Assembly: GCA_030646995.1 (NCBI GenBank)
Contig: JAUSKF010000004.1
Span: 20,404-84,403, forward strand
Direction: 5' to 3'
DNA length: 64,000 nucleotides
Source of the DNA: a bacterium
GTDB taxonomy: Bacteria > Patescibacteriota > Minisyncoccia > UBA6257 > WO2-44-18
This document shows, one piece after another, positions 13,497 to 48,768 of the stretch. A program made the translations under genes and the position numbers. The notes beneath the pieces were generated by a model. That model was given only the letters and a program-made list of their open reading frames with translations. It ran no database searches and had not been told where the DNA came from. Each line of letters opens with the position of its first letter. Position 1 is the stretch's first letter.

Positions 13497-13620
13497 TGCT
13501 TCTCGGACACAGAATAGCCCCACTCCAACGGTGGGGCTTTCTTCTCTCTCGGCGGTTAATCGTTCGTAAAATAATAACGAACGAACCAAGCTTAACCGCC
13601 TCCGAGATGTTCCTTAAAGC
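13497..13620 (+). repeat. Structured ~125-bp repeat element, copy A (family shared with 34014-34140 and 48568-48704)
   Basis: Shares CTCTCGGCGG-hairpin(GTTCGTTCG..CGAACGAAC)-CCAAGC..AACCGCCTCCGAGATGTTCCT core with copies B and C; 5' hairpin differs by compensatory changes. Confidence 0.7.
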
Positions 13621-13685
13621 AACACGACCAAGCCCCAAGACACCAAGAGAACAAAAAGTAGCCTCACTCATGTTGGGAGGCGTAG

Positions 13686-33971: not shown

Positions 33972-35105
33972 TTATCGGAGCGGTTTTTGGTTGCAGAACA
34001 CCCTACATCTTTCGGCCAGACAGCTTCTCGGAAACAGAATAACTTTTCTCCTGCGGAAAAGTTTTCTTCGCTCTCGGCGGTTGTTCGTTCGATTATATAA
34101 ACGAACGAACCAAGCCCAACCGCCTCCGAGATGTTCCTCAAACCAATCTGACCGAAAGATGGGTACTTCCGTCGACGGAAGTAATAAATTTAGCCTCGCT
34201 TTTATTTTATTCGCGTTCCCATGCCCCAACATCCCCAAATATGACTGCCGGGATTGCTCATTTGGATTCTCTTTCAATCTCCGGAACATTTTCCACTTTG
34301 TGACGAAGCGAATAACCCTATGATCCGGGAAATGCACCCAGCCGAGAAAATCCACTCCCGAAACAAGGGTCTTCAGAAATAACTTGTCTTTGTGAATGAA
34401 TAATTTGAGATTCTCCTCAAGGAAATCCTGAATTTTCGGGATTATTTCCACAAGTCGTTCCTTGTCCGGAGACAAAAACACAAAGTCATCGGCGTATCTT
34501 ACGTAATGTCGGGCTTTGAGTTTATGCTTCACGAACTGGTCAAATTGATTCATATAAACATTAGCGAATAACTGGGAAGTGAGATTGCCGAGGGGCAGAC
34601 CAAAACCCGGCTTGGTGGAGAAACTACTTATGACATTCTCTAACAGCCAAATTATTTTCTGGTCGGGAATATATGCCTTCAGAATTTTGAGAAGAATCTG
34701 ATGATTAATGCTGTCAAAAAACTTTTTGATATCACACTTTAATACCCAGCAGGTTTTGGTGTGATTTTTGCTAACTTTATATGCTATCGCTCGGAAACGA
34801 TTAAGCGCTCGATGGGTTCCCTTTTTGATCCGGCAGGAAAACGAATCGGCAAAGAAAGTTTTATCAAAAAATGGATAAAGCAATCGGTGAATGGCGTGAT
34901 GAACGAGACGATCGCGAACTTCCGCCTTGTGAATGATGCGTGGTTTGGGGTCGGCGATTCGGAATTGATAATAGCCGCCGTGACGGTATCTTTGACTTGC
35001 CAACTCCCCGTGAAGCGATAGAATGTTATCCATAAGATTGAAACCGAATTCCTGCACATCCTTTTTACCTCGCTTCCCCTTCAAGAATTCCTGCCAAGCA
35101 ACCAA
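33972..35105 (-). CDS. Diversity-generating retroelement reverse transcriptase
   Basis: RT motifs incl. YADDFVF (motif C), GNLTSQLFANVY (DGR-type motif 4 with SQ), VDFLGW; N-terminal region colinear with Bordetella-phage-type bRT; last ~60 codons read through repeat element B and are probably not genuine. Confidence 0.85.
   Translation of the reverse strand: MVAWQEFLKGKRGKKDVQEFGFNLMDNILSLHGELASQRYRHGGYYQFRIADPKPRIIHKAEVRDRLVHHAIHRLLYPFFDKTFFADSFSCRIKKGTHRALNRFRAIAYKVSKNHTKTCWVLKCDIKKFFDSINHQILLKILKAYIPDQKIIWLLENVISSFSTKPGFGLPLGNLTSQLFANVYMNQFDQFVKHKLKARHYVRYADDFVFLSPDKERLVEIIPKIQDFLEENLKLFIHKDKLFLKTLVSGVDFLGWVHFPDHRVIRFVTKWKMFRRLKENPNEQSRQSYLGMLGHGNANKIKARLNLLLPSTEVPIFRSDWFEEHLGGGWAWFVRLYNRTNNRRERRKLFRRRKVILFPRSCLAERCRVFCNQKPLR
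34014..34140 (+). repeat. Structured ~125-bp repeat element, copy B; overlaps 3' end of RT ORF on opposite strand
   Basis: ~90% identical to copy C (48568-48704 reverse complement) and core-identical to copy A. Confidence 0.7.
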
Positions 35106-35166
35106 AAGATTTTCAATAGAAATTATATCCTCAAAACTATGACGGAATTGAATTCTACCTATAACG

Positions 35167-35176
35167 CCCCCCCCCC
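35167..35176. repeat. Homopolymeric C10 tract in divergent RT/avd promoter region
   Basis: ACGCCCCCCCCCCAGCC between RT start (35105) and avd start (35191). Confidence 0.8.
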
Positions 35177-35190
35177 AGCCGATTTTTCCG

Positions 35191-35532
35191 TTGTTGCATA
35201 AAATAAAAGATGCTTACGCGCTTTGGTATTCCTACTACCAGATTCTACCAAAAACCCACCGCTACTCGCTCGGCCAGAAAATTGACTCTCTTTTTGTAGA
35301 AATTATAGAAACCGTGGCTGCTGCCGGCTTTATCGCCAAGGAAAAGAAGCTGGCATATTTAAGTTTGGCGATTATGAAAGTAGATACGCTAAAAGTTTTG
35401 ATGATGGTTCTCTGGGAGAATAAATCGCTGAACGATAAAAAATATATTCAAATATCTTTTAAAATAAGCGAACTAGGAAAAATGCTTGGCGGCTGGCTGG
35501 GAAAGATTCAGAAACAAAACTCTCCCCGCTAA
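35191..35532 (+). CDS. avd: Avd-like accessory variability determinant (four-helix-bundle protein, TIGR02436-like)
   Basis: 113 aa, basic helical protein with pattern resembling 23S-IVS/four-helix-bundle family; divergent to RT and adjacent to TR. Confidence 0.65.
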   Translation: MLHKIKDAYALWYSYYQILPKTHRYSLGQKIDSLFVEIIETVAAAGFIAKEKKLAYLSLAIMKVDTLKVLMMVLWENKSLNDKKYIQISFKISELGKMLGGWLGKIQKQNSPR

Positions 35533-35544
35533 AAAGCGGGGAGA
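35521..35544. other. GC-rich hairpin flanking TR (DGR hairpin/cruciform candidate)
   Basis: CTCCCCGCTAAAAAGCGGGGAGAG; avd stop codon lies in loop. Confidence 0.6.
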
Positions 35545-35555
35545 GAAATAGATAG

Positions 35556-35690
35556 ATTTGCGACGACCGAACACCCAGACGTTGTCGGGATTCCAGAAGT
35601 TGTCAGCGTTGCCGTTGTTCGCGTTGAGCCAATGCTCATCGCTATTATGCTCCACGTTGAACACGTTCGGGTTGCCGTTCGAGTCAGTTA
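35556..35690 (-). repeat. DGR template repeat (TR), Asn/AAC-rich
   Basis: ~135 bp; coding-strand reads ...NGNPNVFNVEHNSDEHWLNANNGNADNFWNPDNVWVFGRRK; 24 of 25 mismatches vs VR lie at TR adenines. Confidence 0.85.
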
Positions 35691-35935
35691 TATATAAGAG
35701 GCTGCCTATGCCACCGCCCATTGAATACTCTCTGGGTTGTATCGAATTCCGTACCTAAAGTACGATAGCCTCTTATACCAAGTATCTCTATTTTTTTAGA
35801 GTTCTGCGCGCGCCACTCTATCTCCAACCTTGATCAGAAACACACTCGACACGCGGATACTGGATTCGGCAGCAAGGAACCTTAGTCCCCCGCGTATTCG
35901 CCTAATACCAAAATTATATTAACATACGCTAAAAA

Positions 35936-35970
35936 CAAAAACCCCCGCGCTCGAAAGCGCGGGGACAAAG
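35936..35970 (-). terminator. Intrinsic terminator after DGR target gene; doubles as VR-proximal hairpin
   Basis: CCCCCGCGCTCGAAAGCGCGGGG with T-run on minus strand. Confidence 0.65.
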
Positions 35971-36008
35971 AGTCAAAGGGCCAGGTCAAAAGTTCCAAGG
36001 ACTAAGAG

Positions 36009-36764
36009 CTACTTGCGACGACCGAACACCCAGACGTCGTCGGGATCCCAGAAGCGGCCAGCGTCGCCGTCGCTCGCGTGGAGCCAATGCCCACCGCCAT
36101 CCGGCTCCACGCAGAACACGAACGGGTAGCCGCTCGAGTCAGAAATCGGCTCCATTCCGACCAGAATCCATTCCCCGTAAGGCTGGTCCTGGTATTGGAG
36201 GCGGAGCTGGGGGCCGACTTCGGCAGGGCAGCGATCCAAGCCAAGCTCTTTGGCTTCGGCGTAGATCTGCTCGCGAGTGCCGCCACTGGGAAGTCCCAGT
36301 TGGGCGACCGTCATCTTGACCAGATCGATCTCTATCTCCTTGGGGTTGACCGAGATCTTTTTCAGAATGTCGTTGCCCCAGTCAGAGACCCGGTTTTTCT
36401 TGCCGATGATGGCCTTTCGGAGAGCCTCCGGAGACGGATGCGTTCCCAGCTTGAGGGTCTTCCAGACAGGAAGAGCGGAAGAGCATCGAATCGGCTTGAT
36501 CTCGCCAACCCTGGCAATCGCCTGGTCGATTCGGTCGCAGAACTGCTGAAGTCCGGTGATTTTTTCACCGAGCTCAGAACGAAGCACCTCCAAATCATTC
36601 TTGTGTGCCTGCTTCGCTTCCGAAAGCTGGTTTTCCAACTCTCCGATTTTCTTCACCTCTTCCTTGGCCTCCTCGCAAACTTTCGTCAAATCCCCACTCA
36701 AGTCGACGTCTTCTTCAGACTTCTTTTTTCCGCTCACCGGAGCTCTCCTGAATTGGGTTATCAA
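36009..36764 (-). CDS. DGR variable (target) protein: N-terminal coiled coil, C-terminal ligand-binding domain ending in VR
   Basis: C-terminus ...GYPFVFCVEPDGGGHWLHASDGDAGRFWDPDDVWVFGRRK encoded by VR; perfect TTGACA-17-TATATT promoter upstream. Confidence 0.8.
   Translation of the reverse strand: MITQFRRAPVSGKKKSEEDVDLSGDLTKVCEEAKEEVKKIGELENQLSEAKQAHKNDLEVLRSELGEKITGLQQFCDRIDQAIARVGEIKPIRCSSALPVWKTLKLGTHPSPEALRKAIIGKKNRVSDWGNDILKKISVNPKEIEIDLVKMTVAQLGLPSGGTREQIYAEAKELGLDRCPAEVGPQLRLQYQDQPYGEWILVGMEPISDSSGYPFVFCVEPDGGGHWLHASDGDAGRFWDPDDVWVFGRRK
36012..36147 (-). repeat. DGR variable repeat (VR)
   Basis: Matches TR over ~135 bp with adenine-specific substitutions (AAC->AGC/TAC/TTC/GAC/CAC etc.). 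Confidence 0.85.
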
Positions 36765-36803
36765 TTTTTATCCGCCGAATAGCGGATTTGTGAACTGCCG
36801 TAA

Positions 36804-36832
36804 ATATAGCAGAGTTGAGGCTATTTGTCAAC
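36804..36832 (-). promoter_or_regulatory. Sigma70 consensus promoter of DGR target gene
   Basis: TTGACA-17-TATATT on minus strand; paralogous promoter at 38407-38436. Confidence 0.6.
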
Positions 36833-36862: not shown

Positions 36863-36950
36863 GGGGGGGGATATTGACTTAGTCCAAATGGAACGCTATA
36901 ATGGGGATACTAAACGTGAAGGGCATCCTATATGGGTGCCCTTCGTTTTT
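36863..36950 (+). promoter_or_regulatory. G8 tract + TTGACT-17-TATAAT promoter followed immediately by intrinsic terminator (tiny transcript unit)
   Basis: G8 36863-36870, -35 36874-36879, -10 36897-36902, hairpin GAAGGGCATCCTATATGGGTGCCCTTC 36918-36944 + T6. Confidence 0.5.
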
Positions 36951-37573
36951 TATTCCATTTTTATACGCTCTCTAAGATATTCGAAGTCCCTGAAATCACT
37001 GCCTGCAAACTGCTTGATTTCTTTAGCAGTCCTCGCTCCTCTACCTAAAACCACAACCTCTTTCTTCTCAGATCGAAGATGTTTCAATACGGGAAGGAAG
37101 TCTCCATCGCCTGACAAAACAAGAACTCTATCAAAATTGTCTTTTTCTCTCATTAAGTGAAAGGCCATATCCACATCACAATTAGCTTTTCTTTTTGTGG
37201 AACCGTCATCTTGGTTATATAGCTTTACTGGTTTAAGAAAAAGTTTGTATCCGAACTTCTCAAGACGAATATAGAATTTAACTCTTTGAAGATGTCTACT
37301 GATTAAAGCGAGCTGCGCTTCATTGAGCTTCCTGTCTTTGTTCTCGGGTAGCTGTCTCAAATACTTCTCTAGCTCTTTTAGAGGAACGGTCTCATTGGAT
37401 TGGTAATCATATGGAAATTCATAAATTTCCACGCCGCCAAAATAAAAAACCGTATCTACTCCATATTTTTCTTTTAGATACTCAAGGAGTTTTTTGTAGT
37501 CTATTTTCCAACCTAAACTCTTTTCGCCGCCATAAAAAAGATTGGATGCATCCACAAAACCATATGCTTTCAT
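36950..37573 (-). CDS. NYN-domain (LabA-like, PIN-fold) ribonuclease
   Basis: GFVDASNL..., ANCDVDMAFHLM, VLSGDGDF motifs of PF01936; AT-rich, sandwiched between the two DGR target paralogs. Confidence 0.7.
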   Translation of the reverse strand: MKAYGFVDASNLFYGGEKSLGWKIDYKKLLEYLKEKYGVDTVFYFGGVEIYEFPYDYQSNETVPLKELEKYLRQLPENKDRKLNEAQLALISRHLQRVKFYIRLEKFGYKLFLKPVKLYNQDDGSTKRKANCDVDMAFHLMREKDNFDRVLVLSGDGDFLPVLKHLRSEKKEVVVLGRGARTAKEIKQFAGSDFRDFEYLRERIKME

Positions 37574-37654: not shown

Positions 37655-38341
37655 CTAAGACTTGCGGACGGCGAGGAAACGATAGCTGCCGTACCAATCG
37701 CTGCCGAACCAGTAGAGATTGAGCTTCCGAACGTCGAACCAGTACAGATACGGCACGCGGCGGTTGCCGAACGAGCCCCGCCAAGGATTCCCGAGCCCGA
37801 CGATCGGATATTGCTTGTGCTCGTCGGGATGGGCCATCTGGTAGTGGAGGAGCGTCTTCAGGGAGGCCGGTTCGAAGCCGTCACGCTTCATCTCGGCGAC
37901 CACGTTGTCGGAATTCATGTCCCGACTGAAGTGATACATCTTGCACTCCAGCGTTTCCGTGCCGTCCGTCTTCTCCTGATTGAAATGCTTTTCCGTGATG
38001 TCGGAGTTGACGTAGCTAAACCCGGCTTCGCCGATGAGCTGAGAGATGGACTTTCCGTAGTTCACGATCAAGGAATTGTCCGGAGGCTTTCCGGATTTCG
38101 CGCGACCGAACTTGTCGATCACTGCCTGAATCTTCTCGGCCGTCGCTTTCGCGCTGGCCGCCACCTGCTCCATCTCCGACTTGGCTTCCTGAAGAACCTG
38201 CTCAGCTTCCTGCGACATCGTGTCTAGCTTGCCCTTGAGATCCTTATTGATCTCTTCCAAAGCAGCAATCACCGGGTCCCACATGTTCTGGCTGTTCTCC
38301 ACTGCCTCCTCCACGTCGGAAGACTTCTTTTCTTCGCTCAC
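37655..38341 (-). CDS. Paralog of DGR target protein (coiled-coil N-terminus; C-terminal region diverged from TR)
   Basis: Colinear with target 1 (…YQ..Y.IVG.G.P… then W/F/G-rich tail ending RKS); near-identical promoter/5'UTR to target 1 (TTGACA-18-TACATT). Confidence 0.6.
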   Translation of the reverse strand: MSEEKKSSDVEEAVENSQNMWDPVIAALEEINKDLKGKLDTMSQEAEQVLQEAKSEMEQVAASAKATAEKIQAVIDKFGRAKSGKPPDNSLIVNYGKSISQLIGEAGFSYVNSDITEKHFNQEKTDGTETLECKMYHFSRDMNSDNVVAEMKRDGFEPASLKTLLHYQMAHPDEHKQYPIVGLGNPWRGSFGNRRVPYLYWFDVRKLNLYWFGSDWYGSYRFLAVRKS

Positions 38342-38541
38342 GGCAATCTCCTTGAATTGGGTTTTCAGTTATTTTCCGCTTAATTGCGGACTTCAGAACT
38401 GCGGTAAATGTAGCACACTTTAGGCCTATTTGTCAAGAAGTCTGTTTAAGCACGCTAAAACCTCCTCAACGTCAACACCGCCTTCTCTAATAGACGTAAA
38501 ATCTATGATTGTTTCCCAGCCCTCTTCTTGTTTCTTTGACT

Positions 38542-48567: not shown

Positions 48568-48704
48568 GGCTAGACAGCTTTAAGGAACATCTCGGAGGCG
48601 GTTGTGCTTGGCTCGTTCGTTATGTCCGAACGAACAGCCGCCGAGAGAGAAGGAAACTTTTCCGCAGGAGAAAAGTTATTCTGCTTCCAAGAAGCTGTCT
48701 GGCC
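48568..48704 (-). repeat. Structured ~125-bp repeat element, copy C, with 13-bp terminal inverted repeats (GGCCAGACAGCTT/AAGCTGTCTAGCC)
   Basis: Reverse complement ~90% identical to copy B at 34014-34140. Confidence 0.7.
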
Positions 48705-48768
48705 GAGCCATTGACTTGAAAATACTGTAGGCGTACTTTTAAGGCAGCTACTTTTCAAGGAAAAGCCG

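Follow-up and report, generated by a model that had tools for sequence, protein, structure and literature searches.

A CPR-type diversity-generating retroelement with a conserved multi-helix RNA upstream of its template repeat

Analysis of the window (the whole stretch of 64,000 nucleotides), from an ultra-small bacterium of the CPR (Patescibacteria), revealed a template repeat (TR) and a variable repeat (VR) belonging to a diversity-generating retroelement (DGR). Both the TR/VR reading of the repeats and the DGR reading of the locus are fully supported, the latter because the locus combines a reverse transcriptase (RT) of the RVT_1 type, the accessory protein bAvd, an open reading frame whose 3' end holds the VR, adenine-specific mismatches and a GC-rich invariant 3' stretch. 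Taken as a whole, the locus is very likely best explained as a complete CPR-type DGR core with a structured template RNA that would operate by the RT-Avd mechanism proposed below.

Repeat pair, target protein and gene order

The genes and repeats of the locus are as follows.

33972..35162, minus strand: reverse transcriptase (RVT_1, 1.6e-26)
35167..35176, minus strand: G10 run in the short divergent avd/RT intergenic region
35191..35532, plus strand: avd (accessory variability determinant), 113 aa (Pfam bAvd PF22296, E 2.2e-12)
35556..35691, minus strand: TR, 136 nt with 39 adenines
36009..36764, minus strand: target (variable-protein) gene, a 251-codon ORF
36011..36146, minus strand: VR, the last 45 codons of the target gene
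36013-36037, minus strand: invariant GC-rich, IMH-like stretch in the 3' part of VR

Ungapped alignment of TR (35691..35556) with VR (36146..36011) on the minus strand, at an offset of 455, revealed 24 mismatches over 136 nt, 23 of which fall at TR adenines (A to G 14, A to T six, A to C three). With 39 adenines among the 136 TR bases, a hypergeometric test gives P = 1.2e-14 for 23 or more of the 24 mismatches falling at A. The preliminary description had claimed adenine-specific mismatches, and the exact pairwise alignment bears this out (P about 1e-14), as the substitutions are not evenly spread over the four TR bases. Its statement that nearly all mismatches lie at A stands, while its count of 25 with 24 at A has to be corrected to the figures given here; likewise, its VR interval (36012-36147) is one base off relative to its TR interval (35556-35690). 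The sole non-adenine mismatch, T to G at 35647 within CAT to CCG, is the one it had reported. Nearly all TR adenines (37 of 39) occupy codon positions 1 or 2, with ten AAC and two AAT codons. The part of TR that lies 5' of the invariant stretch has 35 adenines, of which 22 are changed in VR.

The invariant 3' stretch (TR 35582..35558, ACGTCTGGGTGTTCGGTCGTCGCAA) measures 25 nt at 60% G+C and includes the identical, GC-rich repeat end recognized earlier. Beyond it, VR reads CGCAAGT and TR CGCAAAT, and the same difference occurs in two related loci, L007 and L009. As this last A to G difference (35557, AAA to AAG) is common to three related elements, it represents a fixed IMH/IMH* difference rather than a product of mutagenesis, and judged by this pattern VR would carry the IMH and TR a non-identical IMH* after the GC-rich invariant stretch. 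Pooling of 27 related loci placed 487 of 512 TR/VR mismatches at TR adenines. TR is 94% identical to that of L007 and 90% to that of L009, whereas the VRs share only 78% and 77%. For this TR, the window holds a single VR. An 82-codon ORF over TR (35473-35721) is spurious, because TR copies coding sequence.

The target gene is annotated by NCBI from a GTG at 36737 (242 aa; hypothetical protein Q7S83_01835). Its product consists of a long N-terminal helix and a C-terminal domain of ~155 aa with a C-type-lectin-like (CLec-like) fold, and VR is located at the C-terminal end of this domain, as in Mtd (1yu0), TvpA (2y3c) and FGE-type CLec proteins. In the VR region the scaffold residues W, L and F are conserved and the AAC-coded variable positions lie between them; the CLec-like fold bears the variable residues, the defining trait of a C-type-lectin-fold DGR variable protein. 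The protein is without any Pfam or transmembrane domain, and exact look-up returned no record, as expected because it is hypervariable. A neighbouring target-like gene (38341..37655) has no second TR in the window, and exact look-up of the NYN neighbour returned only one 1.5-kb Logan contig.

The RT contains the motifs LGNLTSQ and YADD, and I/LGxxxSQ is a signature of DGR RTs. The start annotated by NCBI, a TTG at 35105 (377 aa), drops about 17 conserved residues: conserved N-terminal residues extend in frame as far as about 35162 or 35153, where no canonical start codon is present, while the homologous start in relatives is ATG or GTG. The last ~45 RT codons derive from a repeated element. 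Across the clade, the G-run of the avd/RT intergenic region is kept at 6-13 nt. Two other start sites were rejected. Translation of RT from an upstream ATG (35199-35197) via a frameshift in the G-run is at odds with L007, in which the frame relation is the same and the G-run is interrupted, and this ATG lies antisense to a non-conserved His codon of avd. An avd start upstream of the poly-C, giving a poly-proline N-terminus and a phase switch, is excluded as a general rule by L024, in which only two non-start codons separate the stop from the C-run.

With avd on the strand opposite to VR, TR and RT, the gene order is target-VR, TR, avd (opposite strand), RT. This is the B3 (CPR-type) architecture, TR-(avd)-RT with a reversed avd, to which Wu et al. 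2018 (PMC5758913) assigned 90% of their CPR set. The same order and the reversed avd characterize 'DGR clade 2' of Roux et al. 2021 (PMC8144416), and the CPR-type DGRs further share the kind of host (CPR/Patescibacteria MAG), adenine-specific mutagenesis and a target without Pfam or transmembrane domain; the architecture found here shows no difference from theirs. About 32 of 38 RT-anchored related loci have this architecture, reversed avd included, and the nearest RT homologues all come from CPR MAGs, in loci with TR/VR pairs. In its gene arrangement the DGR is thus a further case of a known type with an ordinary architecture.

Hairpins following the two repeats

A strong hairpin follows each repeat, 44 nt after VR and 11 nt after TR, as had been described.

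35931..35966, minus strand: VR-side GC-rich hairpin and T-run, CCCCGCGCU-UUCG-AGCGCGGGG
35511..35545, minus strand: TR-side stem-loop and tail, 11 bp with a UUUU loop (35545-35520), then UUUUGUUUC

The VR-side hairpin (35966..35941) has 11 pairs as scanned and nine with a UUCG loop as folded, eight of them G-C; it begins 44 nt after the end of VR, and TTTTGTTTTT stands behind it. Such a hairpin occurs in only 15 of 27 related loci, 14 of these with a T-run. Its offset from VR ranges from 11 to 69 nt (32-69 in every locus but one), and L007, the closest relative, is without it. The element is probably the intrinsic terminator of the target gene, a reading that fits because of the distance of 44 nt, the UUCG loop, the T-run, the presence in 15 of 27 loci and the absence in L007. 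In a terminator scan of the minus strand both hairpins pass, each with a G+C-rich stem followed by a T-run, although the six such sites found compare with 6.3 expected in shuffled sequence and represent no excess.

The earlier assignment of both hairpins to the type known to promote Bordetella phage retrohoming found no support in that form. In BPP-1, the retrohoming hairpin lies after VR only, at a distance of 4-34 bp, and consists of a 7-10 bp GC stem with a 4-nt GRNA loop, its absence after TR being thought to help distinguish donor from recipient (PMC3240598, PMC5758913). That both hairpins of the locus act as DNA hairpin or cruciform elements of target recognition could be argued from the GC-rich stems of 9-11 bp after both repeats, the VR-side one fitting the stem length and composition of BPP-1, and from the fact that BPP-1 needs a structure after VR whose distance has been described as flexible. 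However, donor and recipient would be harder to tell apart if TR, too, had such an element behind it, the VR-side hairpin lies 44 nt away instead of 4-34, its loop is UUCG and not GRNA (nor is any loop among the 15 related VR-side hairpins), a T-run follows it, and its lack of conservation adds to the mismatch, as 12 of 27 related loci, the closest relative among them, are without it. We therefore regard this explanation as improbable.

The TR-side hairpin (35545..35520) is a different element. It has 11 pairs and a UUUU loop (−22.8 kcal/mol, z = −6.8), begins 11 nt after the end of TR and is followed by TTTTGTTT. On the opposite strand, the stem-loop covers the end of the avd coding sequence together with its stop codon (TAA, plus strand 35530-35532), which is situated in or at the loop, in line with the earlier description. 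Per-sequence folds anchored on the TR end revealed that it is kept in 24-25 of 27 related loci with 22 distinct stem sequences, starting 11-16 nt after TR in most of them, with a T-rich tail behind 21 of 25 and without conservation of the loop sequence; a MAFFT and RNAalifold alignment (A3) was unusable because the stems differ too much. The hairpin is hence a clade-conserved RNA element distinct from the one on the VR side.

In shape and place, with a stem of ~9-11 bp and a tetraloop just downstream of TR, this stem-loop resembles the Avd-binding element of BPP-1. According to a preprint (bioRxiv 10.1101/2023.10.23.563531), nucleotides Sp 3-33 at the 5' end of the BPP-1 spacer RNA form an 11-bp stem with a tetraloop that binds Avd, the Avd pentamer contacting the DGR-RNA stem-loop through flipped-out bases, and a stem-loop occurs just downstream of TR in 207 of 278 avd-containing DGRs, CPR ones included. 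By this analogy, the TR-side stem-loop is a candidate Avd-binding stem-loop in terminator-like form. It might instead be an intrinsic terminator and nothing else, ending the TR transcript and shielding the convergent avd, with no part in RT-Avd function and with its conservation stemming from the need to stop before the antisense avd. The stem and T-run, the T-rich tail at 21 of 25 related hairpins and the unconserved loops all suit such a purely terminating role, but it leaves aside that the position after TR is fixed at 11-16 nt in most loci, that the hairpin directly adjoins the covarying helix K described below, and that the BPP-1 element with the same place, stem length and tetraloop binds Avd. 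We thus consider termination as the sole role to be unlikely, albeit with a real share of the probability; termination and Avd docking are not mutually exclusive.

Structured RNA around the template repeat

The region of ~210-230 nt between the terminator and TR is a conserved multi-helix RNA, composed of the following elements.

35692..35905, minus strand: conserved structured 5' domain of the template RNA (RNAalifold and pair counts)
35893-35872, minus strand: helix Pa
35855-35850 with 35812-35807, minus strand: helix Pc
35842-35819, minus strand: helix Pb
35793-35785, minus strand: 5' strand of helix K
35778-35767 with 35703-35692, minus strand: helix P1, its 3' strand abutting TR
35763-35751, minus strand: helix P2
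35737-35716, minus strand: helix P3
35546..35555, minus strand: linker after TR, CUAUCUAUUU, 10 nt, 3' strand of the long-range closing helix K

The 5' domain comprises 48 pairs, 42 of them with compensatory changes. Across the alignment 91% of cells are paired, compared with 39-50% in slid controls, and none of 500 shuffles reaches 91%; these shuffles ignore phylogeny, a limit that the slid-register controls and the matches at unseeded loci soften but do not remove. The covariance model R1 gave one match per locus, always just upstream of TR, including ten loci outside the seed. Folding of the single sequence (z = −4.2) recovered all helices except the long-range K. Hand-built alignments (A7, A8) were mis-registered and were left out of the counts.

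P1 ends exactly at the 5' boundary of TR. Helix K, formed by 35793-35785 and the post-TR linker, has 7-10 bp with a constant register in 20 of 22 loci. It was detected by comparison of matched with unmatched duplex energies (means of −6.27 and −4.05 kcal/mol, respectively), the matched value being reached in none of 5000 permutations, while a column-pair scan of concatenated alignments missed it because of register shifts. A TATAAT-like box is conserved at 35916-35911, from which the 5' end of the RNA is placed, by sequence, at about 35905. GATACT at 35786-35781 was dropped as a -10 promoter box, since this segment belongs to K and the approach to P1.

A search of Rfam 15 returned no family matching 35150-36050, even at E up to 10, and no match over the whole window at gathering thresholds. 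The Rfam motifs RT-1 to RT-19 are likewise structured RNAs beside reverse transcriptase genes, at least one being part of a DGR (in BPP-1, RT-10 is located between TR and brt; Weinberg et al. 2017, PMC5737381), and none of them matches the RNA found here. Within the CPR-type DGR literature, which we covered in part, we found no description of helices around TR, and the RNA scaffold may thus be undescribed so far.

Comparison with the BPP-1 DGR, arranged as mtd-avd-TR-brt (Handa et al. 2018, PMC6182149; bioRxiv 10.1101/2023.10.23.563531), revealed agreement in the TR/VR pair with a GC-rich invariant 3' end, in RT and Avd, and in the CLec-fold target. The two RNAs also have in common an 11-bp stem with a tetraloop directly after TR, a duplex between the upstream and downstream flanks of TR (helix K in the present locus), and a helix that marks the 5' edge of TR, the expected stop of cDNA synthesis. 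In contrast to BPP-1, avd lies here on the other strand, downstream of TR, and the VR-side hairpin falls outside the GRNA-loop and 4-34 bp rule. The large structured portion of the RNA (about 210 nt) lies here 5' of TR, whereas BPP-1 has it in a 3' spacer of 140 nt. Furthermore, about 95 nt separate TR from the upstream strand of the long-range duplex, which in BPP-1 is adjacent to TR, the tetraloop after TR is UUUU instead of UNCG, a U-run stands behind the stem-loop, and no template:primer duplex was identified.

A search for a covariation-supported template:primer duplex found none. Segments of the 5' domain and the U-tail had no matched-locus complementarity to the 3' end of TR (best linker p 0.03, tail p 0.10), and we accordingly claim no primer:template duplex; RNAduplex runs with long flanks (60 nt upstream, or the 35-nt TR end, against 140 nt downstream) yielded spurious long duplexes with z about 0.

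Proposed mechanism, activity and significance

In the mechanism we propose, transcription of the minus strand would begin a short way past the target-gene terminator and yield a non-coding RNA consisting of the multi-helix 5' domain of ~210 nt, the 136-nt TR, the 10-nt linker and the 11-bp stem-loop with its U-rich tail. As P1 ends at the 5' edge of TR and the linker at its 3' edge pairs with the segment just 5' of P1 (K), the two helices would enclose TR as a loop. Aided by an Avd pentamer docked on the stem-loop, RT would copy TR into cDNA and misincorporate opposite adenines. This cDNA would replace VR, and the GC-rich invariant stretch at the 3' end would serve as the IMH. In the ligand-binding face of the C-type-lectin-like domain, as many as 35 adenine positions, most of them in AAC codons, could be recoded in this way.

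A more far-reaching proposal, for which we see a reasonable chance but which we advance only tentatively, concerns the large CPR DGR clade as a whole. Here, a previously undescribed and self-contained ncRNA of ~395 nt would embed TR, and its 5' domain (Pa, Pb, Pc, P1-P3) would take over the roles of the BPP-1 3' spacer, namely docking RT and stopping or positioning cDNA synthesis. P1 and K would bracket TR to the nucleotide, the stem-loop and U-run would serve as Avd dock and terminator, and the terminated 3' end may adjoin the 3' end of TR and could prime. If true, the RNA would found a new family, and cis-primed reverse transcription would here be achieved with a rearranged set of parts.

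As RT is without a canonical start codon at the homologous position, activity of this particular copy is not assured. The DGR could be decayed or silent, with RT no longer made and the TR/VR differences a fossil of past activity, and, besides the start codon, the repeated element that invaded the 3' end of RT and lengthened the ORF by about 45 codons, the one non-adenine mismatch and the failure to find a second VR allele (a metagenome scan with an A-to-N pattern gave no match) would agree with decay. However, the RT ORF is otherwise intact with its catalytic motifs present, all RNA helices are intact in the window, and 22 of 35 mutable adenines are changed in VR with almost nothing else. L007 and L009 share the same RT start arrangement and have intact RT ORFs at 79-82% identity, which argues for purifying selection. 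The contrast between conserved TRs and diverged VRs among relatives would be an indirect sign of ongoing mutagenic retrohoming. Decay appears to us a rather remote explanation.

The DGR by itself is routine, being one more beside the thousands catalogued in CPR bacteria. The comparative RNA result is worth more, as the sole mechanistic model of DGR reverse transcription rests on one phage. The covariation-supported scaffold appears to follow the logic of BPP-1 with its parts differently arranged, the shared parts being the post-TR stem-loop, the duplex linking the TR flanks and the helix at the cDNA stop site. It offers constructs for reconstitution of a CPR DGR (RNA 35905-35511 with Avd and RT), a covariance model for direct TR searches and a means of testing which features of the RNA hold universally, with a bearing on the engineering of DGRs as targeted mutagenesis tools.

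Template and variable repeats in a CPR element

[quoted passage not shown] The parts of the element lie as follows:

36764..36009, minus strand: target gene, a 251-codon ORF whose last 45 codons are the VR
36146..36011, minus (coding) strand: VR, 136 nt
35691..35556, minus (coding) strand: TR, 136 nt
35191..35532, plus (opposite) strand: avd, between TR and RT; 113 aa, bAvd PF22296 (E 2.2e-12)
35105..33972 as annotated, minus strand: reverse transcriptase (RT), downstream of VR and TR; RVT_1 (E 1.6e-26)

Counting by TR base revealed an adenine-specific pattern: of 24 mismatches, 23 fall on adenines of TR, which VR replaces by G in 14 cases, by T in 6 and by C in 3 (P = 1.2e-14 for at least 23 of 24 on A, given 39 A in 136 TR bases). 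The preliminary description had rightly interpreted the locus as a DGR, and the adenine bias it reported is borne out, as is the sole exception, a T to G exchange at 35647 within a CAT to CCG codon; its count of 25 mismatches, 24 at A, was one too high in both figures, and its VR interval was off by one base, while everything else it described of the repeats and hairpins is present. Read in the frame of VR, 37 of the 39 adenines fall on the first or second base of a codon, and TR contains ten AAC and two AAT codons. The last internal mismatch (35583) is followed by 25 identical bases (60% G+C) and then by AAA in TR versus AAG in VR; because the two closest related elements have this difference too, we regard it as a fixed difference between IMH (in VR) and IMH* (in TR) and not as a product of mutagenesis. 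Scanning the whole window with TR, adenines being treated as wildcards, returned no further copies. An 82-codon ORF over TR (35473-35721, minus) is only a by-product of TR being a copy of coding sequence, and its 84-aa counterpart in the related locus L005 is annotated by gene callers.

For comparison, 38 related loci from CPR genomes were assembled, anchored on the RT. About 32 carry avd immediately upstream of RT on the opposite strand, as in the window, and in 27 a TR/VR pair is clearly recognisable upstream; in these, TR adenines account for 487 of 512 mismatches (95%). The window TR is 94% identical to that of the closest relative, L007, and 90% to that of L009, compared with only 78% and 77% for VR, the pattern expected when a template is conserved while its target diversifies. 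The element, from a CPR/Patescibacteria MAG, is a CPR B3 DGR and as such of an already known type: it shares the TR-(avd)-RT architecture of 90% of CPR DGRs (PMC5758913) and corresponds to the CPR-restricted clade with targets lacking known domains (PMC8144416).

Target, reverse transcriptase and neighbouring genes

The target, a hypothetical protein at NCBI, has no Pfam match, and no Pfam domain was found among its about 300 homologues in CPR genomes. Its conserved C-terminal domain of ~155 aa, in which invariant scaffold residues alternate with variable positions in VR, was modelled by AlphaFold2 with a pLDDT of 96. A 78%-identical homologue in Parcubacteria bacterium Gr01-1014_19 (L002/L003), followed by a radical SAM gene, lacks TR, avd and RT in its vicinity and is either a paralogue left undiversified or a remote target; that MAG holds a DGR RT (P0156) on another contig. 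Two genes upstream of the VR gene, a 228-aa gene (37655-38341, minus) shares with it the promoter, the opening codons and the 5' UTR, in which a small hairpin lies (38321-38425 versus 36717-36821, 105 nt, 76% identity), the proteins being otherwise unrelated by BLASTP. The 228-aa family is the DGR target in other loci (L010, L036, L040), and no TR for this gene was found in the window. Between the two target-type genes lies an NYN-domain gene (predicted RNase; 36950-37573, minus); a Logan contig from SRR13727527 contains it unchanged, together with the first part of the target gene.

The RT, named "reverse transcriptase/maturase family protein" at NCBI, carries LGNLTSQ and YADD motifs. Its annotated start, TTG 35105, cuts ~17 conserved N-terminal residues (IQFRHSFEDIISIENL; 35105-35162, minus), and GGT stands at 35159-35157 where relatives have ATG or GVG, leaving no canonical start codon there. 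As L007 and L009 show the same arrangement with intact ORFs, this argues against decay of the copy, and a start at ATA or ATT is possible; this DGR copy may be active. The tiny divergent avd/RT intergenic region contains a G10 homopolymer (35167-35176, minus), which reads as poly-C on the avd strand and precedes the avd start, TTG 35191, by 14 nt. It is kept across the clade at varying length (G6, G8, G8, G8, G9, G10, G10, G10, G10, G12, G13), with (GA)6 in its place in L005; in other loci it precedes the RT ATG by 12-27 nt. It may serve as an SD-like element or as a switch prone to slippage. A repeated element of ~130 nt with a very stable fold (about -97 kcal/mol for 240 nt) and no Rfam match at gathering thresholds occurs at 34012-34142, at 48579-48706 (89%, opposite strand) and at 13498-13622 (80%); one copy makes up the end of the RT ORF, adding a C-terminal extension of ~45 aa missing from homologues, and another, in a different genome (L002/L003, about 1130-1290, 74%), adjoins the orphan target homologue.

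Hairpins following the two repeats

35966..35941, minus strand: VR-side hairpin, 9-11 bp GC stem, UUCG loop, then TTTTGTTTTT; starts 44 nt after VR
35545..35520, minus strand: TR-side hairpin, 11-bp stem, UUUU loop, then UUUUGUUU; starts 11 nt after TR

Both hairpins are present as previously described, but that description's account of them is only partly right, since the retrohoming role it suggested for both is not supported as stated. In the DGRs of Bordetella phage BPP-1 and of other phages, retrohoming is enhanced by a 7-10 bp stem with a GRNA tetraloop 4-34 bp after VR (PMC3240598), whereas here the loop is UUCG and the distance 44 nt. When the 120 nt after VR were surveyed in 27 related loci for stems of 7 bp or more, such hairpins turned up in only 15, none with a GRNA loop and none at all in L007; 14 of the 15 have a T-run, and the distance from VR is 32-69 nt in all except one. 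The simplest reading is an intrinsic terminator of the target gene, which may still have a secondary role in target recognition.

The TR-side hairpin (-22.8 kcal/mol, z -6.8), whose loop contains the avd stop codon on the other strand, as had been noted, recurs in 24-25 of 27 loci with 7-15 bp (median 10) and a 4-5 nt loop, in most loci starting 11-16 nt after TR. Its stems comprise 22 different sequences, and 21 of the hairpins have a T-rich tail. BPP-1 has no inverted repeat after TR at the DNA level. Its RNA directly after TR (spacer, Sp 3-33) folds into a tetraloop-capped stem of 11 bp to which all five Avd protomers bind, and such a stem-loop occurs in 207 of 278 avd-containing DGRs, CPR included (bioRxiv 10.1101/2023.10.23.563531). 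The window's hairpin corresponds to it in place and shape, and by analogy would be bound by Avd.

The RNA scaffold around the template repeat

The stretch between the putative target terminator and TR is no plain spacer, but a conserved multi-helix RNA:

35893-35872, minus strand: helix Pa
35855-35850 with 35812-35807, minus strand: helix Pc
35842-35819, minus strand: helix Pb
35778-35767 with 35703-35692, minus strand: helix P1
35763-35751, minus strand: helix P2
35737-35716, minus strand: helix P3
35555-35546 with 35793-35785, minus strand: long-range helix K, pairing the 10-nt linker from TR to stem-loop with a strand just 5' of P1

The consensus, derived from alignments of 110 nt and then 240 nt upstream of TR, comprises Pa, Pc, Pb, P1, P2 and P3 with 48 pairs, 42 showing compensatory changes; 91% of cells are paired, versus 39-50% with partners slid 1-3 columns, and 0 of 500 shuffles reached the observed values. 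A covariance model built on the 110 nt nearest TR and searched over 355 kb gave 31 matches (E down to 4e-24), one per locus and always directly upstream of TR, ten of them in loci outside its building set. Folding the window RNA (35905..35511) alone recovered all helices save K (z -4.2), and Rfam 15, including the RT-associated motifs of Weinberg et al., holds no matching family. The transcript would probably begin at about 35905, judging by a conserved TATAAT-like box at 35916-35911, and end at the U-run.

K forms a 7-10 bp duplex, constant in register, in 20 of the 22 loci; it lies four bases ahead of the conserved GG opening P1, is flush with the stem-loop at its other end, and shows G:C to A:U and further exchanges from locus to locus. 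The mean energy is -6.27 kcal/mol for matched partners, a value that 0 of 5000 permutations reached, versus -4.05 with other-locus partners. TR is thus bracketed by P1, whose 3' strand runs to 35692, directly before TR, on the 5' side, and by K on the 3' side. K is the counterpart of the BPP-1 upstream:spacer duplex ("cPRT stop"), although about 95 nt separate its upstream strand from TR, unlike in BPP-1. A local hairpin (35786-35801, minus; CUCUA-AAAAAA-UAGAG), weaker than K, uses its 5' strand and could compete with it, and may act as a folding switch; many loci contain comparable linker mimics, though with weak support (174 of 5000 permutations). Duplex and covariation searches of the TR flanks yielded no supported template:primer duplex. 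The part of this element worth follow-up is the conserved RNA scaffold around TR.
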